Assembly (NCBI GenBank): GCA_040388745.1
Contig: JAZKBF010000043.1
Coordinates: 84,405 to 148,404, forward strand
Length of the DNA: 64,000 nucleotides
Direction of reading: 5' to 3'
DNA from: Bacteroidota bacterium
GTDB lineage: Bacteria > Bacteroidota > Bacteroidia > 2-12-FULL-35-15
Each line of letters opens with the position of its first letter. Position 1 is the first letter of the stretch. Positions 17,659 to 44,439 of the stretch are shown here, piece after piece. The position numbers and the translations under genes are program-made. A model generated the notes under the pieces. The model did not search any database. It saw nothing but the letters and a program-made list of their open reading frames with translations, and was not told the DNA's origin.

Positions 17659-18627
17659 GTGAATAAATCCATCGATAAAATAATTGAACTGGCCAAATCA
17701 ACCTTAACTATTGAGGCGGACTCAATTCGTAATCTGTTGAATTATATCAATAATGATTTTGTTGCATGTGTTCAACTAATATATGAATCAAAAGGAAGGG
17801 TTGTTGTTACTGGTATCGGAAAGAGTGCGATTATTGCTCAAAAAATAGTAGCTACTTTTAATTCAACCGGTACTCCAGCCATATTTATGCATGCTGCGGA
17901 TGCTATACATGGTGATTTAGGTACCCTTCAGCAGGATGATATTGTAATATGTATTTCGAAAAGCGGAAATACACCGGAAATTAAGGTATTGGTCCCACTT
18001 TTAAAAATTGGGGGAAATAAACTGATCGCATTGGTTGGTAATATTGAATCGTATTTGGCTAAACAAGCTGATTATATATTAAACTCTACAGTGGAGAAAG
18101 AGGCTTGTCCGAATAACCTTGCACCAACCTCAAGCACTACGGCACAATTAGCCATGGGGGATGCTTTAGCGGTTTGTTTGCTTGATTACAGAGGCTTTTC
18201 CAGTAAAGACTTTGCCAAGTATCATCCAGGAGGAGCATTGGGAAAGAAATTGTATTTAAAAGTTTCAGATATTTCATCACAAAATGAAACCCCCCAAGTG
18301 AAACCTGGTGATTCAATAAAAGCGGTTATTCTGGAGATTTCGTCCAAGCGATTGGGTGCCACTGCTGTAATTGATAATGATGAGTTAGTTGGTGTGATCA
18401 CTGATGGTGATTTGCGTAGAATGCTTGAAAAATCTGATTCCATAAATGATCTAAAGGCTTCTGATATTATGAATAAAACACCTAAAAGGATAGAGGCGGA
18501 TGAATTGGCAATAAACGCAATGTTATTGTTGGAACAGAATAATATCACGCAATTAATTGTGACGGATAAAGGGAAGTATCATGGTTTTGTACATTTGCAT
18601 GATCTGCTTAAAGAAGGGATAATTTAA
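17659..18627 (+). CDS. kpsF: arabinose-5-phosphate isomerase (KpsF/GutQ family; SIS + tandem CBS domains)
   Basis: 322 aa; SIS motif VVVTGIGKSAIIAQKIVATFNSTGTPA, ISKSGNT, then two CBS domains. Confidence 0.9.
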   Translation: MNKSIDKIIELAKSTLTIEADSIRNLLNYINNDFVACVQLIYESKGRVVVTGIGKSAIIAQKIVATFNSTGTPAIFMHAADAIHGDLGTLQQDDIVICISKSGNTPEIKVLVPLLKIGGNKLIALVGNIESYLAKQADYILNSTVEKEACPNNLAPTSSTTAQLAMGDALAVCLLDYRGFSSKDFAKYHPGGALGKKLYLKVSDISSQNETPQVKPGDSIKAVILEISSKRLGATAVIDNDELVGVITDGDLRRMLEKSDSINDLKASDIMNKTPKRIEADELAINAMLLLEQNNITQLIVTDKGKYHGFVHLHDLLKEGII

Positions 18628-18750
18628 ATCCTACGAATTACGAATTTTAACGAATTACGAATCTGTGTTTTTATAATTTATAATTTTTAAATAAGTATTA
18701 TACATATATCCCTAAAAAGCTTCTTTTTGGGGAGATAGAAGGATCTTTAA

Positions 18751-19467
18751 ATGAAAAGAATAGCGGCCATAGTTCCAGCATACAATGAAGAAGAGGCAAT
18801 AGCATTTGTTGTGAATGATATTAATACTTTGGCGGAATCTCAACAATTATTGATAGATGTAATTGTGGTAAATGATTGTTCTAAAGATTCCACAGCAGAG
18901 GTAATTTCCAAACTTAACTGTATTGCTCTAAACCTGCCTATTAATTTAGGAATAGGCGGTGCAGTACAAACTGGTTTCAAATACGCTTTAAAAAATGGTT
19001 ACGACTATGCTATACAGATTGATGGAGATGGACAACATCCTGCATCCGAAATTCCAAAGATTGTAAATGCAGCTATTAACGATAATTTCGATGTTGTTAT
19101 TGGTTCCCGGTTTATTTCAAATGAAGGTTTTCAGTCATCTGCTGTTCGAAGGATGGGAATTAATTATTTTAAATGGCTGAATCGCCTGTTGGTGGGTACA
19201 GTTGTAAATGATAGCACTTCAGGTTTTCGTTTAATTAATAGAAAGGTTTTGGAAATAGTGGCAGAGTATTATCCTGATGAATATCCAGAACCGGAAGCGA
19301 TCATTATGTATTCGCTTAATAATTTTAAAATTGGCGAAGTCCCTGTAACAATGAAAGAGAGGCAAGGAGGGGTTTCATCAATTGGTACCATTGCATCGGT
19401 TTATTATATGTTTAAAGTTACACTGGCAATAATTTTTACGTTTACACGAATGACATTCAGGAAATAA
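18751..19467 (+). CDS. GT2 glycosyltransferase, DPM1/GtrB-like polyprenyl-phosphate sugar synthase
   Basis: 238 aa; AAIVPAYNEEEAI, VVNDCSKDST, DGDGQH DXD region; family assignment from these motifs. Confidence 0.8.
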   Translation: MKRIAAIVPAYNEEEAIAFVVNDINTLAESQQLLIDVIVVNDCSKDSTAEVISKLNCIALNLPINLGIGGAVQTGFKYALKNGYDYAIQIDGDGQHPASEIPKIVNAAINDNFDVVIGSRFISNEGFQSSAVRRMGINYFKWLNRLLVGTVVNDSTSGFRLINRKVLEIVAEYYPDEYPEPEAIIMYSLNNFKIGEVPVTMKERQGGVSSIGTIASVYYMFKVTLAIIFTFTRMTFRK

Positions 19468-19522: not shown

Positions 19523-19870
19523 ATGGCAAAAATCCAGATCGTAGCAATAGCAGTTAGTTTACTGTTTTTATTTTATATTGTTCGTTTGATCATTAAAGGG
19601 AAATTACGCGAAGAATATTCAATAGTTTGGATCGTGTGTACAATTGTATTGATCCTGTTTTCATTTTGGAGAAACGGGTTGGAAGTTCTTGCGAATACAT
19701 TAGGTGTGTACGAAGCTCCAAACCTAGTGTTTACAGGTGCTATCTTTGCCATTTTAATTTATCTTTTGCATTTAAGTATCGTGGTTTCAAAATTACATTC
19801 GCAAAATAAGCAGTTGGCACAAGAGATCGCATTGCTAAAAAACGAGTTTGTTAAAAACAAAGCCAATTAA
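19523..19870 (+). CDS. DUF2304 small membrane protein (typical partner of GtrB/DPM1-like GT2; putative lipid-linked sugar translocation accessory)
   Basis: 115 aa, 3-4 TM, immediately downstream of the GT2; this pairing recurs in many bacteria. Confidence 0.55.
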   Translation: MAKIQIVAIAVSLLFLFYIVRLIIKGKLREEYSIVWIVCTIVLILFSFWRNGLEVLANTLGVYEAPNLVFTGAIFAILIYLLHLSIVVSKLHSQNKQLAQEIALLKNEFVKNKAN

Positions 19871-20026: not shown

Positions 20027-21130
20027 ATGAAAAGACTTGCAGTTATAAATGGGTTGAGAGGTTATGCTATTTTGGGAGTAATATACTTTCATTTGATTGG
20101 CGTTTTTTTTAATCAACCGGGTTGGTATACCGTTTTTATTGGTAATCTACCGATATTCCCTTTAACCTATTTAGGGCATGGCTGGTTGGGAGTTGATCTG
20201 TTTTTTATCCTCTCGGGGTTTGTACTCTATCTGCCTTATGCAAATGGCAGCCGTGAATTAAAAACGGGCGCCAGTGTCTGGACCTTTTATAAACACCGGG
20301 CTTCCCGGTTATTGCCTTTGTACTATATTTCGTTAGTAATTTCTATTTTCTTTATCGTTCATGCAAGTAACATTCATGAGTGGAGTTTTTGGAAAGACAT
20401 GATATTGATGTTTACTATAACCTTCAATTTTACTAAGGCGACCTTTATACCGTCCTATAATTATGTGTTATGGTCTTTAGGTATAGAGGTGTTGTTCTCT
20501 GTAATTTTCCCTTTATTGATCTGGTTGATCGTTAAAAAAGGGATAACAAAGTTTTGTTTGGTGGTATTTTATATGAGTTTTATTGTAAGGGTTGTCTCTT
20601 GTTTTTATCCGAATTATTATCTGGCACCTCACCTGAATATGATCAAGGACAGTTTGTTTGGTAGGTTAGATGATTTTGCAACAGGAATGCTGCTTTGCCA
20701 TTGGTTTGTAACAGGCTGGAAACAAAAATGGTTTGAACAATACAGCCTCGTTTTATTTTTCCTTTCACTTTTTGTGATCACCTTGGGATGCTATTTTTCA
20801 GACTATGTTTTTTTACATTACATCTCTTCTTATTTCGAACCCTTGATAAATACGTTCTTTCAGCTGGGCTTTGGATTGTTAACGTTATCGCTTTTGCACA
20901 TGAAAACAAATCCAATACAATTTTTATTTGCAAATAAATCGTTACAACTATGCGGAATGATGTGTTATAGTTTATATCTATGGCATGGAAATATGCGTAT
21001 GGTGTTTATTGCAGATTATACTCCACTGCGAATTATCACTTATTCGATGTTTTTATTTTTGCTTTCCTTTTTAACCTATAGGTATATTGAATTCGGAAAT
21101 AAAAAAATGGAAGATATACTTCCACAATAA
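20027..21130 (+). CDS. acyltransferase family 3 (membrane O-acyltransferase)
   Basis: 367 aa, ~10 TM, N-terminal NGLRGYAILGVIYFHL signature of Acyl_transf_3. Confidence 0.75.
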   Translation: MKRLAVINGLRGYAILGVIYFHLIGVFFNQPGWYTVFIGNLPIFPLTYLGHGWLGVDLFFILSGFVLYLPYANGSRELKTGASVWTFYKHRASRLLPLYYISLVISIFFIVHASNIHEWSFWKDMILMFTITFNFTKATFIPSYNYVLWSLGIEVLFSVIFPLLIWLIVKKGITKFCLVVFYMSFIVRVVSCFYPNYYLAPHLNMIKDSLFGRLDDFATGMLLCHWFVTGWKQKWFEQYSLVLFFLSLFVITLGCYFSDYVFLHYISSYFEPLINTFFQLGFGLLTLSLLHMKTNPIQFLFANKSLQLCGMMCYSLYLWHGNMRMVFIADYTPLRIITYSMFLFLLSFLTYRYIEFGNKKMEDILPQ

Positions 21131-21148: not shown

Positions 21149-21832
21149 TTAAACCAACCCTCCGTTCAAGTCAATGCAGGAGCCTGTTAGGTAGGGCGTT
21201 TGGCGAATGTATTGTATTGTATTAAAAATATTTTCAGGATCGCCAAATTCATTGTAAGCAATTTTTGATTTTATTTTTTCTTGTATTTCAAGGGGTACAG
21301 AATTTATCATTCCAACTTCAAAATAACCTAAATTAATATTATTTATAGTAATACCTTTTTGTGCATTTTCTAAGGCAATACTTTTTATCATTCCGTTTAA
21401 TCCTGCTTTGGATGCTGCGTAAGCGCTGGTCCCCATCACTCCAATTTGTCCTACTATTGAAGATAAATTAATGATGCGTCCAAAGTTTTGTTCACGCATT
21501 ACCTGTAATGTTGCACGTATCAGATGATACGTTCCATTCAGATTTACATTAATTACCTGGGTCCAATCGTTAACATTTGATTTATGAGTGAATGAGTTTT
21601 GAGTAATGCCGGCACAGTTAATTAGTGTGGTGTTTTTTAATTCCGGTTCAACGCTTTTAATAAATTTTTCAACTTGTATGTAGTCGGTGATATCAAGTTG
21701 ATAGGTGTTTTCAAAAATTTCTCCTTCAGGTTTGTTTTCGTGATAAGTGCCAATAATTTTTTCTCCAGCTTGGGTAAACTTATTGAATAAAAAATCCCCT
21801 ATTCCGCCTGTAATGCCCGTAATGATTATCAT
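21149..21832 (-). CDS. short-chain dehydrogenase/reductase (SDR)
   Basis: 227 aa; TGITGGIGDFL glycine-rich loop; NAG; YAASKAG catalytic motif. Confidence 0.75.
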   Translation of the reverse strand: MIIITGITGGIGDFLFNKFTQAGEKIIGTYHENKPEGEIFENTYQLDITDYIQVEKFIKSVEPELKNTTLINCAGITQNSFTHKSNVNDWTQVINVNLNGTYHLIRATLQVMREQNFGRIINLSSIVGQIGVMGTSAYAASKAGLNGMIKSIALENAQKGITINNINLGYFEVGMINSVPLEIQEKIKSKIAYNEFGDPENIFNTIQYIRQTPYLTGSCIDLNGGLV

Positions 21833-21856: not shown

Positions 21857-24226
21857 TTATTTCTTTGATTTTGCTTTTTCGTCTTTTGCCCAATTCAAAT
21901 TGCCTTTTGCTAATCGGTGTGTAGGATCAATTTGTAAGGCTTTGGTACAAGCCTCAATGGCTTTATCCCATTGTTTTAACATGTTATAAGCCGCGCCCAT
22001 ATTGCTGTAAGCGCTTGCATATTCAGGTTGAAATTCTAATGCTTTTTTACAAGCTTCAATACTTTTTTCATATTGGCCTTGTTGATAATAGGCTAAACTT
22101 AGATCGATCTGGCTACCGGCAGATGGTGATTCATTAGCAGCGGTTTCAACTTTTGAGGTTTTATCGCGCTGACTTAAAGCATCAGCGAGGTTGTTTTTTG
22201 CTAACTGAAAATCAGGTTTGATCTCTATTGCTTTTTGACAGGCAGCAATACCTTTATCGTATTGTTTCATTAAGGTATATGCGGAGCCCATATTGTTATA
22301 AGCATCGGCATAATCAGGTTTTAATTTTACTGCTTCTAAACCGGCATTAACGCATTGTTCGTATTTACCTGCCTGATAATACATTAAACTTAAATTAAAA
22401 TATTTTTCTGCCGAAGGGTCTTTCTTTACTTCTTCTTCAGTCATTTCAATTTTCCCTTTTTGGTTTTTGCTTGCTTCCAAATATTGCAATGCTTCCGGGT
22501 TGTTAGGTATTATTTGTAAAGTACCCTCAGCTATATCTTTAAGTTTAGTCCAATTACCGGTATCGTTATATGCTTTCATCAATATACTGCGAGCGCCAAT
22601 ACTAGCAGGGGAAAGCTCGATACATTTTTCTAACATAGGTATCGCTTCGGTATACCGTAATTGACCACATAAAAAATTGCCATAAAAAAACCAGGTATCC
22701 GGAGTATTTCCTCCATATTGAGTTGCACTTTTAAAATAATTTTCTGCACTTACTTTATCACCTGTAGCGTTTTTCAAAACGCCCATGTTTATGTGTAAAG
22801 AATAGTAATAGGGCCACATAGCTATGGCTTTGGTAAAACATTTTTCAGCTTCCACGTAATCACCTTTTCCCATTCTGCTAAGTCCGTAATTCATTAATCC
22901 ACGGGCATTTTTTGGGCTTTTAATAGTTACATCATACCATAAACTCTCTTCAGTTTTCCATACTTTATTACGTTCGTAAGTTCCAAAGGCGTAACCTGAA
23001 AGTACCACTATTACAATAAAAACAGCCATTATATCATAGCTAAAAGGTAGTTGTTCCAGACGTTTTTTATATTTCATTAACAATAAACCAATGGCCCAGC
23101 ATACACTTATTACAAGCCCGACATAAGGAAAAAAGATACGGTGGTCATTTAATACCTCAGCAAAAGGAATTACACTTGAAGAAGGGACCAATGCTAAGAA
23201 AAACCAAAGGATACCATAACTTATAGGGCGAAGACGTTCATCTTTAGAGAAAAGGAATGAAATATAAATCATTAAAAAAATAAATGCACAACCAATAAAA
23301 AATCGAATGTTCCAAATGTTTTGCAGCGGTTCCCAATCGCTATCTGCACTTAAGCCGAAGGGAAAAAAGAAAGTAGTAAAATAATGAGCAATTACAAATG
23401 GTTGAGTAATTAAGTAGTTGATAGTGGATGAACCGCCAGATTCCCAAGTTTTAGGGGTTAAGTGGTCAATAAATAAATATAATGCGGCACAAAAAATAAA
23501 TGAAGGGATCGTTTTTTTAATTACACTAATTAGTTGTTTTGACTGCTTTTTATTAAAGATATCATACAAACTCATTTTTTGCTCAAACAAAAGGATGTAA
23601 AAGAATAATAAGGGTGCAAACATAACCGTGGTTGGTTTTGCCAGACCACCAATACCGATCGGAATCAGGTAGAGATGAGTTCTTTTACAATAGGGCGAAA
23701 ACATATACAGAACAAAGCCAAGCACCACAAAAAACGTGGATTGCAAATCGGACCGGGCGATAACGTAATTGATCGTTTCGGCATTGGCAGGGTGCAAAAG
23801 GTACCATGCAACGGCAATTGCAGCAATATAAAAATTCCAGTTGTTTTTATAGGAGGTATTAAAGAACTTGAAAATAAAAAAGAACATTAAAATACCCTGT
23901 AACAAAAAAAGGATAAATGATGAAAGGTGAAAATAAAACATGTTATACCCTTTCCCTAACCAATAATCGAAAGCGAGTGATGTGCTAACAAAAGGCCGGT
24001 AGGATTGGTTGCTGGGCAGGGAACTAAAAGTTGTTGCGTCTTTGAAAAAACGCGGAATGTTTTTTATATCCTGAATAAATAAATTGTTTTCTACAGCATG
24101 GGAATCATCAAAATGAAAAGAGTTGTTAAAATGATTTGAATAAACAAGTGTTACAACTATTATCAGTAATAGGAAATAAACTAAAGTTTTGCCTTTAGAT
24201 AAATTTTCAAATAAATTTTTAATCAT
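21857..24226 (-). CDS. TMTC-like membrane protein: N-terminal DUF1736/PMT_2-type polytopic (GT-C-like) domain fused to C-terminal TPR repeats
   Basis: 789 aa; ~11 TM in the first ~420 aa with first-loop FHFDDSHAVENN (the acidic DD motif of DUF1736/TMTC); C-terminal ~350 aa of TPR units (A.AY.N.G.AY....Y..A...L.). Confidence 0.65.
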   Translation of the reverse strand: MIKNLFENLSKGKTLVYFLLLIIVVTLVYSNHFNNSFHFDDSHAVENNLFIQDIKNIPRFFKDATTFSSLPSNQSYRPFVSTSLAFDYWLGKGYNMFYFHLSSFILFLLQGILMFFFIFKFFNTSYKNNWNFYIAAIAVAWYLLHPANAETINYVIARSDLQSTFFVVLGFVLYMFSPYCKRTHLYLIPIGIGGLAKPTTVMFAPLLFFYILLFEQKMSLYDIFNKKQSKQLISVIKKTIPSFIFCAALYLFIDHLTPKTWESGGSSTINYLITQPFVIAHYFTTFFFPFGLSADSDWEPLQNIWNIRFFIGCAFIFLMIYISFLFSKDERLRPISYGILWFFLALVPSSSVIPFAEVLNDHRIFFPYVGLVISVCWAIGLLLMKYKKRLEQLPFSYDIMAVFIVIVVLSGYAFGTYERNKVWKTEESLWYDVTIKSPKNARGLMNYGLSRMGKGDYVEAEKCFTKAIAMWPYYYSLHINMGVLKNATGDKVSAENYFKSATQYGGNTPDTWFFYGNFLCGQLRYTEAIPMLEKCIELSPASIGARSILMKAYNDTGNWTKLKDIAEGTLQIIPNNPEALQYLEASKNQKGKIEMTEEEVKKDPSAEKYFNLSLMYYQAGKYEQCVNAGLEAVKLKPDYADAYNNMGSAYTLMKQYDKGIAACQKAIEIKPDFQLAKNNLADALSQRDKTSKVETAANESPSAGSQIDLSLAYYQQGQYEKSIEACKKALEFQPEYASAYSNMGAAYNMLKQWDKAIEACTKALQIDPTHRLAKGNLNWAKDEKAKSKK

Positions 24227-24426: not shown

Positions 24427-25359
24427 ATGAATACTAATAATGAAGAGAAAAAAGAAAACGATTTAGTTGACTCAAACCAAACCTCCGATATTAATCAAGA
24501 AGGAAAATCCGAAAACACTCCATTTGATTCAGATGACAGTTTAGATATTGGTCAGGAAGAAAAAAACGAAACAACTCCTGCTGATGAAAAACAAAGTAAA
24601 ACGATCAGAACTATTGTAATCGTTGTTTTATTATTGTTACCTATTGCGTATATTTTTTACAAAACTGCCGGTAATTCCAGTTCAACTCCGGAACAAGCGG
24701 CTAATCAGGCTCAAACGATAGATGTTGCCGCTTATGAAAATGCTGCAGCTACCAATCCTACTTTTAGTAACCTACTTAACCTTTCAAATGCTTACATCAA
24801 CTCCGGAGTTGCAGGAAAGGCTATAGAGCCTTTAAAGAAAGCAATTGAATTAAATCCTGAAAGTGCTATTGCATATAGCAATTTGGGATTTGCATATACT
24901 ATTATTCAGCAGTATAAAAAAGGAATAGAATTTGGACAAAAGGCTGTGCAATTGGATAGTACTTTCCAGTTGGCTAAAAACAATTTGAATTGGGCTTTAA
25001 CCGAACAAAACAAATTGCTTCAAGCGATTGCGGAAGTAGAAAAAACACCTGAAGATAAAAGAAATACGGATTTTTATATTATGTACGGATTGCAATATTT
25101 AAAATTACAGGACTACGATAAGAGTATTGCAATCTGGAATAAAATACTTGTAACAGAGCCTAAAAATTCGGCAGCATTAATAAATATTGGTGTGGCTTAT
25201 ATGTCTAAAACCCAATACGATGATGCGGTTAAGAGTTTTCAAAAGGCTATAGATGCCAATGCTAATGATCAACTTGCGAAAAATAATCTTGCTTGGGCGT
25301 TGAGTGAGCAAAATAGAGTATTAGCTGAAAAAAATAAAACAGGAGTTCAACAAAAATAA
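24427..25359 (+). CDS. TPR-repeat protein with acidic N-terminus and single TM anchor
   Basis: 310 aa; low-complexity acidic N-terminus, TM (IVIVVLLLLPIAYIFY), then ~6 TPR units; repeats end with LAKNNLNWAL / LAKNNLAWAL, closely resembling LAKNNLADAL / LAKGNLNWA in the upstream TMTC-like protein. Confidence 0.7.
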   Translation: MNTNNEEKKENDLVDSNQTSDINQEGKSENTPFDSDDSLDIGQEEKNETTPADEKQSKTIRTIVIVVLLLLPIAYIFYKTAGNSSSTPEQAANQAQTIDVAAYENAAATNPTFSNLLNLSNAYINSGVAGKAIEPLKKAIELNPESAIAYSNLGFAYTIIQQYKKGIEFGQKAVQLDSTFQLAKNNLNWALTEQNKLLQAIAEVEKTPEDKRNTDFYIMYGLQYLKLQDYDKSIAIWNKILVTEPKNSAALINIGVAYMSKTQYDDAVKSFQKAIDANANDQLAKNNLAWALSEQNRVLAEKNKTGVQQK

Positions 25360-25812: not shown

Positions 25813-27000
25813 CTAATTTAATGATTGCAAATACGCTAAACGACCTTTAATCAGTTGTAATACTTTATTTGTAAAAAAACTAAGGAGTACAATTGTGCCT
25901 GATAAATATAGAATAATCATTGCTATATAACGCGACCAATGCTCGTTGGTAAGGCCTGTAGCAAATCTTTCCCAAATGCTATTAAAAACAAGTAAAGTCC
26001 CTGTTAAATAACAAAGTAGGGCGATGAGTATTGAAGTTGAATGCTCAAAAATATAATAGAGTATTGTTTTATTTTGTTTTGCATTTGGCTGAAGAGTGAA
26101 GCATACAACATTATAAGTAATATGCGAAATGCTAAGTAAAATAATCCCAATTAAACCAAATACTGTTGATACAACAAATCTATAGATCATCCAATCTTCA
26201 AGGAAATGATTTTTTAAGTAAAATAAAAATGGGGAAGCAATAATTAATAATGCAATTGACAAACAGCAAACAGCAATCAGATTGAATATTTTATATGGGA
26301 TATATAAAAAAATGTTTTCAAGTATCACAGATAAAAAGCGTTTCCCATCTTTCCATATTTTAAGTTTAGATTCCCCTTCACGTTCCAAATAAGGCATATC
26401 TTTTTCAAGAATAGTAAGATCTTGACTTAATACAGCTCTTGCGCTCATTGCGGGTGTAAAATGCAGGCCATCAGGTAATGGCATAATTTTATGCAAGGCT
26501 GTTTTGCGAATAACCCTCATACCACTGGCGGTATCTTTTATCCGTTTGTTTGCAACCAAAGAAAGCATTACTGAAAATAGTGTATTACCAATCCTTCTTA
26601 TAAGTGGCATTTCACTTTGTTTATTTAATCGCGAGCCTAAAGCAACATCAGCACCTTGCTCAGTGATCAGGTTGCATAGTTCCGAAAAAAATAAAGGGTC
26701 ACATGTGCCATCGGCATCAAGAAATGCAAGTAAGTCAGCATCCTCCCTGCTTTTCCAGCCTTCTTTTATAGCAGCACCGTATCCGCGGTTTTTTTCAAAA
26801 ATGATAAGATCTATTTTATCAGAGTGACTTTTAGCAATATTTACAGTATTATCGGAAGATCCATCGCTAACTACAACAATGTCAATTGAAGTTACTTTGC
26901 TTTTTTCACAAATAGCAGATTTCGCTTGCTGTGTCCGTAATATTATGCTCTCAATGCTCTTTTCTTCATTCAGAGCGGGAATTACAATTAATAATTTCAT
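25813..27000 (-). CDS. membrane-anchored GT2 glycosyltransferase (DPM1/GtrB-like catalytic domain + C-terminal ~5-TM domain)
   Basis: 395 aa; LIVIPALNEEKSI, VVSDGSSDNT, LDADGTCDP (DXD); C-terminal 170 aa polytopic. Confidence 0.75.
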   Translation of the reverse strand: MKLLIVIPALNEEKSIESIILRTQQAKSAICEKSKVTSIDIVVVSDGSSDNTVNIAKSHSDKIDLIIFEKNRGYGAAIKEGWKSREDADLLAFLDADGTCDPLFFSELCNLITEQGADVALGSRLNKQSEMPLIRRIGNTLFSVMLSLVANKRIKDTASGMRVIRKTALHKIMPLPDGLHFTPAMSARAVLSQDLTILEKDMPYLEREGESKLKIWKDGKRFLSVILENIFLYIPYKIFNLIAVCCLSIALLIIASPFLFYLKNHFLEDWMIYRFVVSTVFGLIGIILLSISHITYNVVCFTLQPNAKQNKTILYYIFEHSTSILIALLCYLTGTLLVFNSIWERFATGLTNEHWSRYIAMIILYLSGTIVLLSFFTNKVLQLIKGRLAYLQSLN

Positions 27001-28596: not shown

Positions 28597-29045
28597 TTAG
28601 CAAGTACGATTAAACCATTATTAAAATCTTTAACTATGTGCCAACCATTATTTAAATGAAAATTGGTTTCGGGGTTAATATGAACTGACGAATAAAGGTT
28701 GTATAGAATTGTATCGCAAACAATTCCATCAATGGAGATTATATTAGGAGTTAAATAATACCGTGTAAGAGCGAAATGCATTGCACCTGTACCATAATCT
28801 TCATTGGCTTCTCCAAAATACGAGAAATGCGAGGGTTTAATAAATATTTTTTTTACCTCTTCGTACCGGTTTCCGTAAAGTGTAATGTAATCATTACCAT
28901 AATTTTTCTTAATAAACTGTACAGGACTTTCAAACTTTTCTTCATATTTAAGGAACGTAATATACATTTGTCCTACTATGATGGATAGTAAAATTAATAT
29001 TAGAATGTTATTGACAACATTAATGATCTGTATATTCGATTTCAC
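28593..29045 (-). CDS. small single-TM protein, paralog A of 42527..42976; 4-nt ATGA overlap with the downstream large membrane gene
   Basis: 150 aa; N-terminal TM; conserved YGNDYITLYGNRY, and a C-terminal 22-mer FHLNNGWHIVKDFNNGLIVLAK nearly identical to its paralog. Confidence 0.5.
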   Translation of the reverse strand: MKSNIQIINVVNNILILILLSIIVGQMYITFLKYEEKFESPVQFIKKNYGNDYITLYGNRYEEVKKIFIKPSHFSYFGEANEDYGTGAMHFALTRYYLTPNIISIDGIVCDTILYNLYSSVHINPETNFHLNNGWHIVKDFNNGLIVLAK

Positions 29046-36317: not shown

Positions 36318-37823
36318 ATGCAAGCAATAAAGATCAATGAACTATTTTTCAAACGTGCGTCCATTGTTTTTTTTGCCGTTTTGTTTATTGTGGGATGCTT
36401 TGTCTTTTCTGATTATGGGATATCTTGCGATGAGCCGGACTTCTCTCGTTATAATGGGGCAGTAAATTACAATTTTCTTAGTACAGGAGATTCTAAGGAA
36501 TTGCTTGCGTCCACCGAAAAATACCACGGGCCGGCTTTTGAAATAGTTTTATATTCTGTCGAAAAATTATTGAAAGTTACCGATTCCCGCAACATCTATT
36601 TGTTGCGGCATGGTTTAACTTTTTGGGTTTTTTTCATTGGCACCCTGTTTTTCTATTTATTGGGCTTGAAATTTTTTAAAAGCCATGGAGCTGCTCTATT
36701 ATGCAGCGTTATGTTAGTTGCATCCCCCCGAATTTTTGCGGAGAGTTTTTTTAATTCGAAGGATATAGTCATGCTTTGTTTTTGCATTATTGCGAGTTAT
36801 ACCGCTTTCATATTTGTAGAGCGTCAAACAATAAAGTGGGCTTTTATTCATGCGGCTTGTTGCGGATTTGCAACTGACATTCGGATTATGGGATTGTTAA
36901 TACCTATTATAACGTTATATTTATATGCTATGCAAAAACAAAGGAAATTTACTCCTGTTTTGTTTTTCATATCCTACACTTTGTTCTTCATTATTGCTTT
37001 TTGGCCAATTATGTGGCTCAATCCTGTCCAGCATTTTATTGGGGCGCTCCGGGAAATGACTCATTTCCCAGTATTTATGACTGCTTTATATTTTGGGAAG
37101 TTGATTGACTGTCAAAATTTGCCTTGGCACTATTTACCTGTATGGATTTCCATTACAACGCCTTTTTTGTATGTCATTTTTTTTCTGATAGGAATATTTT
37201 TCGCGGTAAAAAACTCATTTGTTAATTTTTCAAACACTCTGCCGATTCAATTCTCGTTATTTATGTTTGGCACACCTATCCTGGCTGTAATAATTTTAAA
37301 CTCTACTGTTTACGATTCTTACAGACATATATATTTTGTATATCCTTATCTCTTATTAGTCGCAGTATATGGCTTTATTCAACTAACTCAGACTATAAAA
37401 AAAAATTGGGCGGTAAAAATAATTTCCTATTCAACCGGCCTGTCCATTCTATTAGTTTTTGTTTTCATGATTGTAAATCATCCTCATCAAAATGTATATT
37501 TTAGTTTTTTAGCCGGAAAAAATGTGAGGCAAAATTTCGAATTGGATTATTGGGGATTGTCGTATCGACAAGGATTAGAATATATTTTAGCAAATGATAA
37601 ATCCAGTCATATAAATATTGCTGCCGATACAGGGGAATGCCTTTTGAATTTTAATATTATCCCGATTGAGGATAGAAAACGCCTTGTATGGACAGATATA
37701 AAATCAGCAAAATATTATTTAATGAATTTTAGGTGGCATCCTTCAGACTATGATTTTGGAACTACAATATTTGAAATTAAAGTTGATAACGAAAAAATTA
37801 TGGAAGTTCAAAAACAAAAATAA
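36318..37823 (+). CDS. polytopic membrane protein, GT-C-type glycosyltransferase candidate
   Basis: 501 aa, ~12 TM in the first 400 aa plus C-terminal soluble domain; first loop FSDYGISCDEPDFSRYNG carries a DE acidic motif. Confidence 0.45.
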   Translation: MQAIKINELFFKRASIVFFAVLFIVGCFVFSDYGISCDEPDFSRYNGAVNYNFLSTGDSKELLASTEKYHGPAFEIVLYSVEKLLKVTDSRNIYLLRHGLTFWVFFIGTLFFYLLGLKFFKSHGAALLCSVMLVASPRIFAESFFNSKDIVMLCFCIIASYTAFIFVERQTIKWAFIHAACCGFATDIRIMGLLIPIITLYLYAMQKQRKFTPVLFFISYTLFFIIAFWPIMWLNPVQHFIGALREMTHFPVFMTALYFGKLIDCQNLPWHYLPVWISITTPFLYVIFFLIGIFFAVKNSFVNFSNTLPIQFSLFMFGTPILAVIILNSTVYDSYRHIYFVYPYLLLVAVYGFIQLTQTIKKNWAVKIISYSTGLSILLVFVFMIVNHPHQNVYFSFLAGKNVRQNFELDYWGLSYRQGLEYILANDKSSHINIAADTGECLLNFNIIPIEDRKRLVWTDIKSAKYYLMNFRWHPSDYDFGTTIFEIKVDNEKIMEVQKQK

Positions 37824-38061: not shown

Positions 38062-39129
38062 ATGATCAAGCCTCTCACTTCATTACGATTTGTATTTGCC
38101 TTGATGGTGTTTTTCGACCACATTGCTACTTCTGCGATTAATGTTGATATTCATATGCAATGGCTTTCGGATAATGTTTTTCGCGAGGGGTATGTTGGAG
38201 TTGGATTCTTTTTTGTGCTTAGTGGATTTATATTAGCGTATAACTATAAAGATAAATTTTCAAAAAAGGAGGTCAATAAAAAGAATTTTTGGATAATGCG
38301 CTTGGCACGTGTATACCCTTTGCATTTACTTACTTTATACTTGTCGGTGCCTATGGTATTAATGCTTTGGAATTACGATCTGACGGGAATTCTATTTCCG
38401 TTTTTTTTAAACTTGTTTTTATTACAAAGTTATATTCTTCCTCCATTTGAATATTATTGGTCATTTAATACAGTTTCTTGGAGCGTATCAGACGAAATGT
38501 TTTTTTATTTTTTGTTCCCATTTATTATTAATTTTTTAAATAAGAAAAAAGAGCTTCTTATTGCATTGGTGTTACTGGCTTGTATAGCTATTCCATTGTT
38601 AATGCTAAAAACTTCAAACATGGATATGCGACCTGTTTGGTTTTATATACATCCTTTTTTTAGGATAGTTGATTTTTTAATAGGGATTTTATTATATGAA
38701 ATTTATCTGAAAATGAAAGACAGCAAAATATTGAAGTTTGCCAGTATCTTAGAGTTATTCTCAGTATTGCTTTTTGTTTTATTTTTTTTATTTCACAATT
38801 CAGTGCCACAGGTATATAGAAGTTCATGCTATTACTGGCTCCCGATATCTTCCATTATATTAATTTTTTCGTTTCAAAAAGGAGTTTTTTCTCAAATGTT
38901 TTTGAATAAGCATCTTGTCTACTTAGGCGAAATTAGTTATGGATTTTATATGTTTCATGCTTTAGTAATTCAATATTTTATAATTTTGAATGCGAATTAT
39001 TCCATTTTTGAAAATTATTATTTATTTGTATTTTTTATGCTCTGTTTTTCAATTTTTATAAGTGCAATTTGTCATAGCGCATTTGAAAAACCAATAAATA
39101 AGTATATAGTGAAAAGGTTTTGCAGATAA
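38062..39129 (+). CDS. acyltransferase family 3 (membrane O-acyltransferase)
   Basis: 355 aa; LRFVFALMVFFDH signature; ~10 TM. Confidence 0.75.
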   Translation: MIKPLTSLRFVFALMVFFDHIATSAINVDIHMQWLSDNVFREGYVGVGFFFVLSGFILAYNYKDKFSKKEVNKKNFWIMRLARVYPLHLLTLYLSVPMVLMLWNYDLTGILFPFFLNLFLLQSYILPPFEYYWSFNTVSWSVSDEMFFYFLFPFIINFLNKKKELLIALVLLACIAIPLLMLKTSNMDMRPVWFYIHPFFRIVDFLIGILLYEIYLKMKDSKILKFASILELFSVLLFVLFFLFHNSVPQVYRSSCYYWLPISSIILIFSFQKGVFSQMFLNKHLVYLGEISYGFYMFHALVIQYFIILNANYSIFENYYLFVFFMLCFSIFISAICHSAFEKPINKYIVKRFCR

Positions 39130-39265: not shown

Positions 39266-40894
39266 TTAGATGTTACTTTTAGAAAATATTTTTATTTGAA
39301 AATTGATCTTGTCAATAATTTGCCGTTCAGTTATATTAATCCCTTCATACTGATAGGCTTTAAAATTAAGCCAATGAGTTTTTGTTTCAATTAATTTACA
39401 GGAATCATCCGGTGTATATTTATGATATAAGGTTAAGTCATTCACGGGGTAAAAAAAACAACAATTCGTTACTACAAAAGTGTCGGGTTGAGTTTTTGCT
39501 TTTACGGGAAATTTTGAATAATCTATTATTTCTGTTTGATCCGGAGATACTGACCAGCCATTAACATACTCGCAAATGTTTTCGATGTTACTTAGATTGG
39601 TCGTTTCATTCAGCTTCCAATAAACATCTCTGGGGTATGAAAATGAACTATAATGGATAAAATTAGTTCCGAAATTTAATATAAAAACTAATGAGATCAT
39701 AAACAATACCAAATCCTTTTTCTTCGTTATTTTAATTAATAGCATATTTATTGAAAACAAAGAAAAGAGACAAATGAAGGGAACATATTGATGTAATGAT
39801 CTTCCCATTAAATATAAAGTATTAAAGAAATAGCCCACACTTGCGTAAGCTAAATACAAACCAAAAACTCCAATGCCTAACAACATGATAAGTGAATTTT
39901 GTTGGAAAGTTTTGTTTCTGATTTGATTTAACATTATTAAACAAAAAAGTGGGATGCATATTATCAAAATTATTCCTGTTACCCACTCTACCTCAAAAAG
40001 GTACTTAATTATAAATGTATATGATTCTTCGGAAGATCCTTGATTTACTATACTGGAAGCATGAAGTGCATCCGATATATAGGAGACTCCTCCAAGTCTG
40101 GACATTCCCTCAAAAATAAGCAAGCAATATATGCTTCCTAAAATATAATAGAATGAATGGTAAATTTTATTGAAAACATTTTTTTTAGTTAAATTATTAA
40201 AGAATAATAAAAATAAACCTAAGAAGAATAATGGGAAATATCCCGGATAAACTAAATAACCAAAAAATGAACCGATTCCTATAAGCACGGATATTTTAAA
40301 CGATAACTTGTCTTCTTTCGTATATTTAAAAATTTTATAAATGATCAAATAGAAGATCAAAAGACTGGTATCATACGCAAGCACATGTCTTAGATACAAG
40401 TATGAATTTGTTAATGAACTGTATAGTAAAACACTTAGTAAAGCTAAAAAGTTGTCCTTTAAAACCAATTTTGAAACTTTATAATGGACAATTAGGATAA
40501 AGCAATAAATAATAAAATTGAAAATAAATAATGGGTATGAATTATTGCTTTCATAAGTATATAGGTTAAATATGTAGGAAGTAAGTTGTTGTATGGCATT
40601 TGGAATAGTTGATAATATGACATCTCCAGGTTTGGATTTGGTTGAAAATATGTCTGTCATTGCTTCTCCTATCTTTAGTTCCGATAAGTCATGTAATGTT
40701 TGTTCTGCTGCAAAAAAGCGAAATTCATCAGGAAAGGTTAAGAAACCGGACCCCATTAAATTTAGTTTGATAACTGTAATCAGCACAATACTTGTAATCA
40801 CTAAATATTTTAGTGGCTGTTTGCTAAAGCAATAAGCTAAAGCTTGCAGTTTTAATTTTATTTTAATAAAAAATGTATTGATGGTTAAACTCAT
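39266..40894 (-). CDS. polytopic membrane protein with C-terminal ~140 aa soluble domain; GT-C-type candidate
   Basis: 542 aa; first loop FLTFPDEFRFFAAEQ (DE motif); ~11 TM then a soluble Cys-containing C-terminal domain (ArnT-like architecture). Confidence 0.4.
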   Translation of the reverse strand: MSLTINTFFIKIKLKLQALAYCFSKQPLKYLVITSIVLITVIKLNLMGSGFLTFPDEFRFFAAEQTLHDLSELKIGEAMTDIFSTKSKPGDVILSTIPNAIQQLTSYIFNLYTYESNNSYPLFIFNFIIYCFILIVHYKVSKLVLKDNFLALLSVLLYSSLTNSYLYLRHVLAYDTSLLIFYLIIYKIFKYTKEDKLSFKISVLIGIGSFFGYLVYPGYFPLFFLGLFLLFFNNLTKKNVFNKIYHSFYYILGSIYCLLIFEGMSRLGGVSYISDALHASSIVNQGSSEESYTFIIKYLFEVEWVTGIILIICIPLFCLIMLNQIRNKTFQQNSLIMLLGIGVFGLYLAYASVGYFFNTLYLMGRSLHQYVPFICLFSLFSINMLLIKITKKKDLVLFMISLVFILNFGTNFIHYSSFSYPRDVYWKLNETTNLSNIENICEYVNGWSVSPDQTEIIDYSKFPVKAKTQPDTFVVTNCCFFYPVNDLTLYHKYTPDDSCKLIETKTHWLNFKAYQYEGINITERQIIDKINFQIKIFSKSNI

Positions 40895-41036: not shown

Positions 41037-42530
41037 CTATTTGACTAAATTATGATTTTGTTTAAGAGTTTTTTGTTTAACCCCAAGAAAATATATAAAA
41101 ATAAAAGTTGGGAATAGTTGAAAAAATAATCTATGTATAGACGTAGAAAGATGGAATTCTAATGGCAATGGAGTTATAATGTAAATAAAGAAAAAGCCAA
41201 GTAGCATTAATAAGAACAAAATAAAAGCTGAAAGCAGGCTGTCTCGATTTTCTTTAAGATTGATACCTTTATAAATAATCCCAAAAAGAAATAACCACCA
41301 AGGGTTTATTACCCATTTCCCAAATGTTGTAAATTGTTCAAAATACCATTTACACACTGTTTCGTATCGGGAATAATCTGTTAGTTTAATAAATGTTTCT
41401 GCTCCTTGTGCACTCACAATGTCATTGGGTGGGGCGATTGAGATTTTGTAATATGCTATTAAAAATAAAATTGGCAACATACCCAACAATAAATATTTTA
41501 GTTCGGTTAACAATTCGCGATAATTTTTGAAAAAAAGCAGCGAAAATTGGGAACAAAATAAGCAGGCAATAAATAGTAATCCTTCATTTTTACTCCAGGC
41601 CGATAAACCAGCTGTAATTCCTGCTACAATTAATAATTGTGGTTTTATTGAGGCCTCTCTCCGTGCAAAAGTTAATAGTACAACTGTTGCAAGGTAGAAA
41701 AACCCTACCGTATTGTCGGCATACTGCGAGTCTCCCATTGTCATATAAAAAGGGGTGGCAAGTAGAATTAAGCCTGCAATTAGTCCTTTGGTTTTATTTG
41801 TAAAAATGCTTACTGAAGTGGCCAAAAAACCGATGGTGCAAAAAGTGAATGCAAAAGAAACAACTATAGGAGCCCATACACTTTCATTTTTCAAATACAA
41901 CCAACAGCGCGCTATATAGCCGGTTTGTAATAATGGATAATCCGGATGGAAGTCATCCGAAACCATTTGATGAAATAAATGTGGCCAATCAAAAGGAGCA
42001 AGGCTGATAAACTTAGCCTTTAAATTCCAATAATTAAATGCGTCCCATAAACCATGAGATTCTTTAATGCTATCAAAATAGAAAATGCCGGAGTCCATCA
42101 GCCATGCATAAAAATAAATTACGGTAAATAAAAGTAAAATTGGATTTTTAAGCAATTCCTCTCCCCAACAATTGAAGCTATTCCTCAAGCGCTTGGCAAT
42201 ACTATTAGAACCAGTTTTTGGTGATGGCTTTTGAAGCTGCAGTTCGGGTATAATATGTTTAAGCCCTGAAAATTGACCAATTGTTTTGTTTGATTTTTTG
42301 ATTTTAAAAGCCAGAAAAATGATCAATCCAATTTCTACCAAAGAAATCAAGAAAAATGGCAATTTTAATAAATTTAAAGAAATAAAAATAACTGATGAAA
42401 TCCCAATCCCTAAAGGTAGAGATAGGTTTATAAGAAAACGGAAATTGGTATTGTCATTTTTTTCAAAAACTAAAATACAGAACAAGAGTCCGAGAAAAAA
42501 CGATAATAATATTGAAAAAATAAGCATCAT
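41037..42530 (-). CDS. large polytopic membrane protein, paralog B of 27172..28596
   Basis: 497 aa; same conserved blocks as paralog A; has an extra ~25 aa insertion near residue 85-110. Confidence 0.5.
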   Translation of the reverse strand: MMLIFSILLSFFLGLLFCILVFEKNDNTNFRFLINLSLPLGIGISSVIFISLNLLKLPFFLISLVEIGLIIFLAFKIKKSNKTIGQFSGLKHIIPELQLQKPSPKTGSNSIAKRLRNSFNCWGEELLKNPILLLFTVIYFYAWLMDSGIFYFDSIKESHGLWDAFNYWNLKAKFISLAPFDWPHLFHQMVSDDFHPDYPLLQTGYIARCWLYLKNESVWAPIVVSFAFTFCTIGFLATSVSIFTNKTKGLIAGLILLATPFYMTMGDSQYADNTVGFFYLATVVLLTFARREASIKPQLLIVAGITAGLSAWSKNEGLLFIACLFCSQFSLLFFKNYRELLTELKYLLLGMLPILFLIAYYKISIAPPNDIVSAQGAETFIKLTDYSRYETVCKWYFEQFTTFGKWVINPWWLFLFGIIYKGINLKENRDSLLSAFILFLLMLLGFFFIYIITPLPLEFHLSTSIHRLFFQLFPTFIFIYFLGVKQKTLKQNHNLVK

Positions 42531-42976
42531 TTAGCAAGAACAATTAAACCATTATTAAAATCTTTTACAATATGCCAACCATTTTTCAAATGGAAGTTAG
42601 TTGAAGGTGTAATTTGTTTTGAGTTGTAAAGGTTATAGATAATCGTATCCCGAACAATTTGATTTCTTAAAATTAAATTAGGCGATAAATAGTATTGAGT
42701 AAGGATGTAATGAAGTGCCCCGGAAGCAAAGTCTTCATTGTTTTCTCCGATGTAAGTTAAATTGGTTGGCTTTGGAAATAGTTTTTTTATTTCTACAAAA
42801 CGATTTCCATATTGGGTAATGAAATCATTCCCATAGTCTTGTTTTGTAACTATTACAGGGTTTTCAAATTTGTCTTCATATTTAATAAATGAAGCATATA
42901 GTTGCCATACAAAAAAGCAGAGCAATGCTATCAATAGGATATTATTGGCAATTTTAATAATGGGTTCCTTCATCAA
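42527..42976 (-). CDS. small single-TM protein, paralog B of 28593..29045; 4-nt overlaps with genes on both sides
   Basis: 149 aa; C-terminal FHLKNGWHIVKDFNNGLIVLAK is nearly identical to paralog A; YGNDFITQYGNRF conserved. Confidence 0.5.
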   Translation of the reverse strand: MMKEPIIKIANNILLIALLCFFVWQLYASFIKYEDKFENPVIVTKQDYGNDFITQYGNRFVEIKKLFPKPTNLTYIGENNEDFASGALHYILTQYYLSPNLILRNQIVRDTIIYNLYNSKQITPSTNFHLKNGWHIVKDFNNGLIVLAK

Positions 42977-44439
42977 TCAAAAAATAATTTTTGAGGTAAA
43001 TTTCCCGAAACGTTAATTTTATTAAAACGTTTAAAATTTGTATGTTTCTTCACAGCCACGATCACCTGAAAAATCATTATTAAAAACATGATAAGAACAG
43101 GAATGATCCTGTCGAGGCGGATTAATGTTAAGGCATTGCCACTGAAATCGCCACCACGGAATAAAAAGTATAAACTTGGTAGACACAAAAATATGCCTAC
43201 ATAAAACATGATTGAAATATATTTTTTATAAAAAACATCTTTTTCTTTTAATATCGGCAATAATGCAAGAATTGGCAATACTGATGTAAATTGATATTCC
43301 CACACGGTATTATAACTTAAAAAGAAGGATAATGAAATTGCCATCACCAACAATAATGTACTTTCCAGGCGGATTTTTTTATCCTCAATAAAAGCAACTC
43401 CTATAGATAAAAACAAACTAACATAGATCGGTATTTTATAAATACCTGATGGTGTAGATTTTTCAGCGATAGTGTCTATAAATACAGGTAAAGAAAAAAC
43501 ATCAATATGCATGAGCTTGTATTCTGATTGCGCAATTAAATTCAACCAATGAATACTATTATCTCTCATATATTCATTTAAAACAAAATGGTTTTTATAA
43601 ATGTTCATATTTTCTTTTATAAAATCAAAGTCAAAGACAATACTTAGCAGTTTATTAAAACCAACCCCTTGCGGATTTAATTGCGGTAATAGTATAAAAA
43701 GCAGAGAAACAACTGAATAGATTATTAGACTTTTAATAGTTGTTTTGCGCGTTTCTTTTGTTAAAAGTAACAGTGGAAGCATTAGTAATACAATGGGTTT
43801 GCTGAAAAATGAAATAAGTAAGCCAACAAGGAGTTTTTTATTGGCGGCTTTTATATCCTTTTCATTCTCAGAATATGTTAATTCATAAATGGAAACTAAA
43901 ATTAAGGTAAGTGCAAGTACCAAAGGAGCGTGCATATTACCTACAAACAGCATCCAATAAGTAGGGAAGGCGCATAACATTAAAAAATAGGAGAGATGTT
44001 TTTTAAAATTATTTGTTGTTATTTTTGAGATCAGGTAACCACAATATGCCATTACTGCTATCGAAAAAAGGGCAAATAACCAGTAACTGGTCCATGGCGA
44101 AAAAAATGAAAACCAGGAAGCCACAAAAAGGCTGAATGCGGGATGTGCCAGGTACCAGGTGGAGTGGGGGCCATAAGGAGTCCCGCCCCAGGTGTCAAAT
44201 ATACTACGTCCTTCAAGCAGATTTAAAAAAGATTTTGGCACTGCAAAATAATCGATCCCCTGAACACTAGGATTCAGCTCTGCACCATAAAAAAACATGT
44301 TTAACCATCCGAAATGCAAGGATAGAAGCATTGTTGCAACTATTGCAATAGTTGCAATTGATAAATACCAGCCAGAATTTTGTTTCATATGTTTCAAAAG
44401 TATTAATTTTTTAGTTAGGGATTGAATTGATCTGCACAA
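42973..44439 (-). CDS. polytopic membrane protein, DUF2029/GT87-like (mannosyltransferase-like) candidate; start may be internal Met at 44388
   Basis: 488 aa, ~12 TM; general resemblance to the DUF2029 family; weak assignment. 4-nt overlap with the downstream small gene. Confidence 0.4.
   Translation of the reverse strand: MCRSIQSLTKKLILLKHMKQNSGWYLSIATIAIVATMLLSLHFGWLNMFFYGAELNPSVQGIDYFAVPKSFLNLLEGRSIFDTWGGTPYGPHSTWYLAHPAFSLFVASWFSFFSPWTSYWLFALFSIAVMAYCGYLISKITTNNFKKHLSYFLMLCAFPTYWMLFVGNMHAPLVLALTLILVSIYELTYSENEKDIKAANKKLLVGLLISFFSKPIVLLMLPLLLLTKETRKTTIKSLIIYSVVSLLFILLPQLNPQGVGFNKLLSIVFDFDFIKENMNIYKNHFVLNEYMRDNSIHWLNLIAQSEYKLMHIDVFSLPVFIDTIAEKSTPSGIYKIPIYVSLFLSIGVAFIEDKKIRLESTLLLVMAISLSFFLSYNTVWEYQFTSVLPILALLPILKEKDVFYKKYISIMFYVGIFLCLPSLYFLFRGGDFSGNALTLIRLDRIIPVLIMFLIMIFQVIVAVKKHTNFKRFNKINVSGNLPQKLFFD

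Follow-up and report, generated by a model that had tools for sequence, protein, structure and literature searches.

In a 64,000-nucleotide stretch of a Bacteroidota bacterium genome (GenBank assembly GCA_040388745.1, contig JAZKBF010000043.1, positions 84,405 to 148,404; hereafter the window), an island of about 26 kb at window positions 17659-44439 combines three predicted polyprenyl-phosphate-sugar synthases with a large set of membrane glycosyltransferases. All of its remaining polytopic proteins, eight in total and leaving aside the small and acyltransferase families described below, are GT-C or GT-C-like. The island is best understood as an enlarged form of a known logic of periplasmic glycosylation, in which lipid-phosphate sugars supply GT-C enzymes. 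This mechanistic class had been proposed in a preliminary description of the sequence and is supported by homology on the donor side and by the GT-C fold on the transferase side. As to the product, we tentatively favour, with a probability of roughly 0.45, a self-contained periplasmic-face glycosylation locus whose glycans would be started on exported proteins and then extended.

The island holds 23 open reading frames (ORFs) of at least 100 amino acids (aa) that are not nested in longer genes, named here by their first window coordinate. Predicted ORFs are present for every gene in the preliminary description, and searches against Pfam, NCBIfam and the PDB back nearly every assignment. The Pfam scan covered 50 window ORFs of at least 100 aa; six ORFs nested in or overlapping longer genes and one short ORF at the right end of the window were set aside. 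Finding 11 glycosyltransferase genes and 3 acyltransferase-3 (AT3) genes within 26 kb is far above chance expectation.

On the donor side, three glycosyltransferase family 2 (GT2) enzymes of differing architecture fall by sequence similarity into the polyprenyl-phosphate glycosyltransferase class, as anticipated from their likeness to DPM1, GtrB and ArnC. Their sole PDB sequence matches at E<1e-5 are ArnC, PfDPMS and GtrB, and their top NCBIfam matches are PpgS, AglJ, Dol-P-hexose transferase, PgfS and ArnC. The enzyme of the conserved core (18751..19467, + strand; 238 aa; Pfam Glycos_transf_2, 3e-25) has the short GacI/PpgS-like form; its top NCBIfam match is PpgS (4e-26; 91.8 bits against an equivalog cut-off of 370), and its PDB matches are solely the three named above. 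Just 56 bp downstream lies a small protein with three transmembrane (TM) helices and a DUF2304 domain (19523..19870, +; Pfam 6.9e-29), confirming the partner expected for one of the synthases. The pair is kept in 10 related loci, where orthologues of the GT2 (63-80% identity) adjoin DUF2304. Members of the DUF2304 family, including GacJ and Rv3632, bind and strongly activate GacI, a GlcNAc-P-Und synthase, and PpgS, a GalNAc-P-polyprenol synthase; by homology, the window protein would be a stimulatory partner of this type for GT2 18751.

The second synthase (25813..27000, -; Pfam GT2, 9e-23) has an archaeal DPMS/AglJ-like architecture with four C-terminal TM helices (residues 241-377). Its NCBIfam matches are AglJ (3e-23) and Dol-P-hexose transferase (9e-23), and its PDB matches are ArnC, PfDPMS (5mlz) and GtrB. 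The third (32827..33753, +; 308 aa, two C-terminal TM helices) is of the GtrB/ArnC type by Pfam GT2, PDB and NCBIfam matches, aligning full-length with GtrB sll0501 (2e-50) and matching ArnC (1e-31) in the PDB, and matching PgfS (5e-58; 196.8 bits against a cut-off of 500) and ArnC (2e-39) in NCBIfam. None of the three reached the equivalog-level NCBIfam score that would name its sugar, all lying far below the cut-offs, and the transferred sugars therefore cannot be named.

The key enzyme of the conserved core is a 789-aa GT-C protein (21857..24226, -) in which an 11-TM N-terminal domain (about residues 1-425) is followed by C-terminal tetratricopeptide repeats (TPRs; Pfam). It had been described as a TMTC-like protein with DUF1736 and TPRs. 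The repeats and the TMTC likeness hold, the latter on fold, topology and motifs, and the DUF1736 assignment does not: neither DUF1736 nor PMT_2 matches the N-terminal 430 aa in Pfam, even at E<=10, and DUF1736 appears in the precomputed Pfam annotation of none of the 120 homologues listed. Of the seven motifs published for human TMTC1-4 (PMC7801869, Table 4), the invariant alignment columns of the window family conserve M1, M3 and M5 outright and M2, M4 and M7 in part. The DD of M1 is D40 D41, invariant in both family alignments and readable directly in the window protein as FDD40-41 past TM1. M2 (SHKSYRP) appears about 33 residues past this DD as N-Q-S-Y76-R77-P78. The RxD of M3 is an invariant R158-S-D160, and the DW of M5 is an invariant D297 W298. 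For M4 (KE(T/Q)xxT), K197 is followed by P in the window protein and its clade and by E in a clade at 40% identity. M7 (ERxxY) corresponds to D-H362-R363-x-F-F-P-Y368, and M6 (PxxP) has no clear counterpart. Reading model helices against the motifs and two K/R-rich loops (216-225 and 386-396) predicts an inside N terminus, 11 TM helices and an outside TPR domain, which is the TMTC topology. Thus, the protein probably works like TMTC-type enzymes, and homology to them is likely. The family has >2,400 members, among them proteins of cultured Emticicia and Mucilaginibacter.

Two further core genes accompany it. One, missing from the preliminary description, encodes a second TPR protein (24427..25359, +) with a single TM helix and Pfam TPR matches. 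It is 33% identical to residues 584-786 of 21857, that is, paralogous to the C terminus of that enzyme, and has orthologues in 9 loci. The other, directly downstream of the TPR-bearing GT-C gene, encodes a classical short-chain dehydrogenase/reductase (SDR; 21149..21832, -; 227 aa; Pfam adh_short, 2.5e-39), with NCBIfam matches of a merely generic FabG-like kind and orthologues of 70-78% identity in 9 loci. In the cultured species Emticicia fluvialis (JANUSD010000002.1, 8001-14193), a homologue of the TPR-bearing GT-C adjoins a methyltransferase, a GT2, a DAO-family FAD oxidoreductase and a UbiA-family prenyltransferase, a gene set that recalls donor synthesis of the decaprenyl-phosphoribose type; the donor route there may differ from that of the window.

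The other seven GT-C or GT-C-like proteins vary in how closely they match described families. We infer the periplasmic orientation of their acidic loops from TM order and positive-inside loops. The acidic motif that the preliminary description placed in the first loop of 21857, 29160, 36318 and 39266 can be read in all four sequences and is invariant or nearly so where families were aligned. Three PMT_2 assignments exceed the Pfam gathering score of 26.1 bits. The first of these enzymes (36318..37823, +; 501 aa; 1e-6, 29.4 bits) carries CDE38-39 past TM1. The other two, 27172 (27172..28596, -; 474 aa; 2e-9, 38.2 bits) and 41037 (41037..42530, -; 497 aa; 1e-10, 42.3 bits), had been left unassigned and are paralogues with 61% identity; orthologues of 41037 (59-75% identity) occur in 8 loci, and D163 and D197 are invariant in its family. 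Both have an N-terminal extension atypical of the family, three added TM helices and a K/R-rich loop lying ahead of the helix that precedes the conserved acidic loop, and the Pfam PMT_2 match begins no earlier than residue 189 or 203. A fourth, PMT_2-like candidate (29160..30380, -; 406 aa; 4e-5, 24.3 bits) falls just under the gathering score; it carries GDE38-39 past TM1, so that DE38-39 is read directly both here and in 36318, and has an orthologue of 72% identity in one related locus.

Each of the paralogues 27172 and 41037 is preceded by a gene for a small protein with a single TM helix, of 150 aa (28593..29045, -) and 149 aa (42527..42976, -), respectively. The former gene overlaps the start of 27172 by 4 bp, and the latter overlaps both of its flanking genes by 4 bp. 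The two small proteins are 62% identical and have no Pfam or NCBIfam match, and the ATGA overlap inside each pair marks a duplicated two-gene module of partner followed by PMT_2 GT-C (28593/27172 and 42527/41037). The partner belongs to a conserved family with a C-terminal NGWHIVKDFNNGLIVLAK motif that in every case lies upstream of a GT-C of the 27172/41037 type. The gene is always directly upstream of this one type of PMT_2 enzyme; the partner is most simply explained as a possible GT-C accessory subunit.

Two of the island enzymes belong to families that Pfam does not cover, and neither enzyme has an NCBIfam match. The first (33846..35396, -), also listed as unassigned earlier and still without a Pfam match, is a GT-C-fold protein with E48 and D59 in the first outer loop. 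Its true start is probably near M17, the mechanical ORF start being too far upstream, because homologues are about 500 aa long. The family is large: at 50% identity, a profile search returned 1,794 clusters, of which 1,145 had E<=1e-30, and in none of 42 sampled members does a Pfam model match the membrane domain. D59 and R398 are invariant across these 42 wider family members, and D59 and E48 are nearly invariant in a closer 70-member alignment. The family is a candidate for a new GT-C family definition. Several of its members are fused to SGNH/GDSL, AlgX-like, PA14, CBM60 or Ig/cadherin-like domains. The second (39266..40894, -; 542 aa, PDE past TM1) is a divergent PMT_2-related GT-C candidate placed by transitive profile homology: none of 50 sampled family members matches Pfam, and in hhalign the family profile can be aligned over its whole length to a Hymenobacter protein (probability 100%, E 2e-47), which itself scores above the PMT_2 gathering score. 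D56 is invariant in this family and E57 nearly so. The family is rare (93 homologues) and includes members of 50-53% identity in Desulfobaccales/Thermodesulfobacteriota metagenome-assembled genomes (MAGs), which suggests gene transfer between phyla. Profile-profile comparison among the island GT-C families (hhalign of three family profiles against a fourth) gave no signal, the families being too divergent or the alignments too shallow.

The eighth GT-C candidate (42973..44439, -) lies in the conserved frame next to tatC. Its description as GT87-like stands with a qualification: the window protein itself scores 22.8 bits in Pfam against a gathering score of 25 (8.5e-5), and 9 of 16 orthologues match GT87, with E down to 6e-9. 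Orthologues in the nearest relatives are 94-97% identical to it. Translation probably begins at 44388, at the ATG of M18, downstream of the mechanical start, because M18 is invariant in the family and gene calls are 470-471 aa long. The family profile had no match among PDB sequences. GT87 is the family of PimE, and the presence of such an enzyme within the conserved frame would accord with a different product, namely a free lipoglycan or periplasmic glycan assembled from scratch on a lipid anchor in the membrane through repeated GT-C additions alone, analogous to the mycobacterial phosphatidylinositol mannosides (PIM), lipomannan (LM) and lipoarabinomannan (LAM). Many GT-C enzymes for few donors, with no Leloir glycosyltransferase or initiating phosphoglycosyltransferase found in the window, point in the same direction. 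Yet the GT87 match of the window protein is sub-threshold, no gene that would prime a lipid acceptor was found (for example a GT4 of the PimA/PimB type), and we know of no such lipoglycan in Bacteroidota. We consider this product distinctly improbable.

The decoration enzymes named in the preliminary description, three AT3 proteins, a hexapeptide acetyltransferase, a methyltransferase and the SDR described above, are all matched by Pfam. The AT3 membrane O-acyltransferases, identified by Acyl_transf_3, are encoded at 20027..21130 (+; 367 aa; 1e-19), 30674..31855 (+; 393 aa; 2.9e-22) and 38062..39129 (+; 355 aa; 2.4e-23). The first is a lineage-specific insertion into the core, and three related loci have no AT3 gene between DUF2304 and the SDR. 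The left-handed beta-helix acetyltransferase (32114..32689, +; Pfam Hexapep, 3e-19) is most similar to the sugar N-acetyltransferases NeuD/PglB/VioB (NCBIfam TIGR03570, 5e-24, under the cut-off). Because this NeuD/VioB-type gene adjoins GT2 32827, the sugar handled by that synthase may be an N-acetylated amino sugar. The trio of Hexapep, GT2 and GT-C that runs through 32114 and 32827 onward is found again in a related locus, L084. The S-adenosylmethionine-dependent methyltransferase (35448..36131, +; 227 aa; Pfam Methyltransf_11/12/25, about 1e-15) is cytoplasmic.

We then compared the locus across relatives by a TatC-based scan with one genome per species, mapping the island proteins onto 80 loci. 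The scan yielded only MAGs of uncultured Bacteroidota, with freshwater, soil and groundwater as their sources. Distant relatives, at 54-73% TatC identity, have kpsF directly beside tatC. Across a broad clade with 59-97% TatC identity, kpsF and tatC (or RecQ and TatC) are separated by a compact core. It runs from GT2-DUF2304 through the SDR and TPR-bearing GT-C genes, which lie on the opposite strand, to the gene for the TPR protein, often followed by the GT87-like gene. In the window and its nearest relatives, many additional genes separate the TPR gene from the GT87-like one. The search for conserved synteny that had been suggested thus revealed a conserved core around a hypervariable centre, spanning about 25360-42970 in the window. 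Relative to the three closest genomes, collinear sequence of 91% nucleotide identity starts exactly at 42971 and continues rightwards past tatC, and to the left there are only patchy matches of 70-80% in differing order. Position 42971, which coincides with the 4-bp overlap of the GT87-like gene 42973 and the 149-aa gene 42527, is a sharp recombination breakpoint. The left breakpoint was placed from more distant relatives only. A hairpin with a perfect 20-bp stem (TTAGGGGACGTTATGCAAAAAA...TTTTTTGCATAACGTCCCCTAA; 25435-25481), found in a terminator scan between the convergent genes 24427 (+) and 25813 (-), marks the left edge of the variable region and probably terminates transcription in both directions. 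A promoter scan found sigma-70-like sites to be rarer than in shuffled sequence, so that the scan is uninformative for Bacteroidota.

The G+C content of the centre is 0.29-0.33, compared with 0.35-0.37, so a conserved frame surrounds a low-G+C, strain-variable centre. The centres of relatives hold differing selections of the same gene classes: that of L084 has at least 9 GT-C-like genes together with a GT2 and a Hexapep gene. In another relative (JAVHPE010000100.1, 1-5033), genes for a nucleotidyltransferase, a 4,6-dehydratase, a DegT aminotransferase, an epimerase and a GT2 adjoin partner/GT-C pairs and one AT3. Together these would suffice to make a lipid-linked amino-deoxy sugar, by a complete route that the window lacks. 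A conserved frame with a mosaic, low-G+C centre is the pattern of exposed surface glycan loci that diversify under antigenic or phage selection. A mosaic centre that differs between strains, and genes spread over both strands in several transcription units, could also mean that unrelated membrane proteins, sharing no pathway, had piled up by chance at a recombination hotspot. That is highly improbable: all the genes belong to glycan-synthesis or glycan-modification classes, identical classes reappear in each relative's version, and translationally coupled gene pairs are conserved.

Classical O-antigen and capsule machinery, reported as missing in the preliminary description, is likewise missing from our Pfam scan, in which none of the 50 ORFs matched Wzx/MOP, Wzy, Wzz, WbaP/WecA, GT1/GT4, a polysaccharide ABC exporter or GtrA; a conventional O-antigen cluster was not found in the window either. 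Flippases of the GtrA, SMR, MATE or Wzx type had no match among the same ORFs, and the intergenic gaps of the island contain no free small flippase-like ORF. Gene products 33846 and 39266 were considered as Wzy or Wzx and ruled out, being GT-C by fold or homology. We also rejected a mobile-element origin: there was no tRNA and no Rfam match, and none of the scanned ORFs matched an integrase or transposase in Pfam.

These components suggest the following scheme. By homology, the three GT2 enzymes would work at the cytoplasmic face, where they would transfer three monosaccharides from nucleotide sugars to undecaprenyl phosphate, so that the presumed donors are undecaprenyl-phosphate monosaccharides. 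These would be flipped by a route for which the window has no recognisable gene. The eight GT-C proteins, with their acidic first-loop motif, would then pass the sugars to acceptors outside the cytoplasm, the fold being evident and the activity putative. The periplasmic TPR domain of 21857 and its free paralogue 24427 most likely choose the acceptor, for which we favour Ser/Thr residues of exported envelope proteins, and the GT87-like and PMT_2-like enzymes would extend or branch the glycan, as in mycobacterial mannan and arabinan assembly. The AT3 proteins would O-acylate the finished glycan across the membrane, and the methyltransferase and SDR would alter donors in the cytoplasm.

Exported proteins are preferred as the core acceptor because the core enzyme is of the TMTC type with outward-facing TPRs and because protein O-glycosylation by GT2 and GT-C enzymes is proven in streptococci. 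Several observations weigh against this preference. The TPR/TMTC analogy is the only pointer to a protein acceptor, and the core enzyme lacks a DUF1736 match and has KP in M4 in place of the metal-binding KE of TMTC. The assignments of 29160, 42973 and 39266 are sub-threshold or transitive. A flippase is not encoded in the window, and a Wzx/Wzy, ABC or lfg-type O-glycosylation locus outside the 64 kb could supply the base glycan. Finally, the fusions of 33846-family members to CBM60, PA14 and AlgX/SGNH domains point to a polysaccharide rather than a protein acceptor, at least for that enzyme. Taken together, the TPR-bearing core enzyme and the 33846-family fusions fit a protein-started, elongated glycan and the decoration of lipopolysaccharide (LPS) or another polysaccharide equally well.

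On the latter account, the island would be a large post-assembly modification locus of the Gtr/Arn/Rgt type. Side-chain sugars and O-acyl groups would be attached to LPS, at its lipid A, core or O-antigen, or else to a capsular polysaccharide or exopolysaccharide with a backbone made by conventional machinery elsewhere in the genome, and the TPRs would contact export or assembly proteins instead of substrate proteins. This is quite possible, even if we think the odds are against it. Besides the fusions just mentioned, it is consistent with the GtrB/ArnC-like GT2 32827, with PMT_2 as the family of ArnT and Rgt, with a hypervariability like that of O-antigen loci, and with an Arn-like NDP-4-amino-sugar-type pathway beside a GT2 in relatives. 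Stand-alone AT3 proteins are typically O-antigen or polysaccharide O-acetylases, which also fits, and three-component periplasmic modification is widespread in Gram-negative bacteria. By contrast, no side-chain modification system described so far comes near to eight GT-C proteins for three donors, a flippase of the GtrA, SMR or MATE type was not found in the window, and in characterised GT-C enzymes TMTC-type motifs and TPRs of the kind seen in the core enzyme accompany protein acceptors. A Kdo/LPS link through the neighbours kpsF and lptB was rejected, both being ancestral flanks; since kpsF-tatC is the ancestral insertion site, their adjacency is not evidence for LPS.

A more specific form of the protein-acceptor proposal, which we put forward as unlikely, is that the core (the GT2/DUF2304 synthase, the TMTC-like GT-C, the TPR partner and the GT87-like extender) is a bacterial counterpart of endoplasmic reticulum-type protein O-glycosylation, in which lipid-phosphate monosaccharides would be used to begin glycans directly on envelope proteins, and that the centre is a Leloir-free, GT-C-only line that elongates these O-glycans and diversifies them between strains. 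If true, it would represent a second route of protein glycosylation in Bacteroidota, distinct from the known en-bloc system with undecaprenyl-diphosphate-linked oligosaccharides, and would involve at least two GT-C families that have no Pfam models and a new 150-aa GT-C accessory subunit.

The surroundings of the island are housekeeping genes: RecQ and kpsF (SIS and CBS domains) on the left, and TatC, DUF5686 and an LptB-like ATPase on the right. The kpsF gene, which the preliminary description placed at the left edge (17659), is indeed there, as an ancestral neighbour and not a member of the island. The remainder of the 64 kb is housekeeping by Pfam too (UppP, HemD, Lnt, ferrochelatase, UvrD and others). 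Also outside the island, and with no obvious tie to it, are genes for an undecaprenyl-diphosphate phosphatase (BacA; 190-981), a beta-propeller protein with a type IX secretion C-terminal sorting domain (4752-6458), and a fourth acyltransferase, of the Acyl_transf_3/HGSNAT type (14065-15129).

Periplasmic glycosylation from lipid-phosphate monosaccharides is mostly known as a one-enzyme side-chain add-on or as a mycobacterial cell-wall pathway. The present locus would extend GT-C-only glycan assembly and diversification to Gram-negative Bacteroidota, and it provides handles in the TMTC-like family, the Pfam-less 33846 family and the conserved 150-aa partner. Were the acceptor a protein, the system would serve as a tractable bacterial model of the TMTC enzymes, which are poorly understood; were it LPS or another polysaccharide, it would be an unusually rich source of variation in surface antigens and phage receptors of abundant freshwater and soil bacteria. 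The island is of greater interest if protein O-glycosylation proves to be its function. In agreement with the earlier suggestion that such a locus is undescribed in Bacteroidota, limited full-text searching found no description of one, and nothing specific on a Bacteroidota GT-C array, a bacterial TMTC homologue or a Bacteroidota O-oligosaccharyltransferase with TPRs.

To call the pathway novel, as was done initially, nevertheless overstates the case, as its two-step logic is already characterised in the Gtr, Arn, GacIJKL and Pgf/PgtC2 systems, in three-component pentofuranose systems and in mycobacterial LM, LAM and arabinogalactan assembly. In the Gtr and Arn systems and in PPPRS-MATE-GT136 of Citrobacter, an undecaprenyl-phosphate monosaccharide is made by a cytoplasmic synthase step and then serves a GT-C as donor on the periplasmic side, as proposed here; window protein 32827 aligns full-length with GtrB and ArnC, and the PMT_2 family includes ArnT. 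These systems use one synthase, one flippase and one GT-C to modify a pre-made glycan, whereas the window has three synthases and eight GT-C proteins, without a recognisable flippase and with no backbone locus in the 64 kb. GacI/GacJ/GacK/GacL of Streptococcus and PpgS/Rv3632/Rv3779 of Mycobacterium, both side-chain systems for N-acetylhexosamine (HexNAc), likewise combine a short GT2, an adjacent DUF2304 protein and a GT-C. They differ in that 18751 scores only 91.8 bits against the 370 required, that the window has no Wzx-like GacK, and that its partner GT-C is TMTC-like and bears TPRs.

Among protein-modifying enzymes, the eukaryotic TMTC1-4 are cadherin O-mannosyltransferases, from which the window protein differs in having no DUF1736 match and P for E in M4. 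Compared with TMTC, PMT and POMT, its putative donor would be an undecaprenyl-phosphate sugar, possibly HexNAc, and not dolichyl-phosphate mannose. The streptococcal Pgf (PgfS/PgfE/PgfM1/PgfM2) and GtrB/PgtC2 systems also pair a GT2 lipid-phosphate-sugar synthase with a GT-C, and by this means Ser/Thr residues of exported proteins are glycosylated outside the membrane; PgfS is the top NCBIfam match of 32827. Their GT-C enzymes, by contrast, are of the YfhO family and two at most, in a Gram-positive host and with no hypervariable cassette. In mycobacterial PIM, LM, LAM and arabinogalactan assembly (PimE, MptA-C, EmbA-C, AftA-D), which belongs to another phylum, the genes are scattered and conserved, whereas the window has a strain-variable island, and the phosphatidylinositol anchor and galactan acceptors are without known counterpart in it. 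Set against all of these, what is unusual here is a locus in which no Leloir, flippase or backbone genes were found nearby, its phylum, the number of GT-C enzymes per locus, the hypervariable cassettes and the TMTC-like enzyme at its core.

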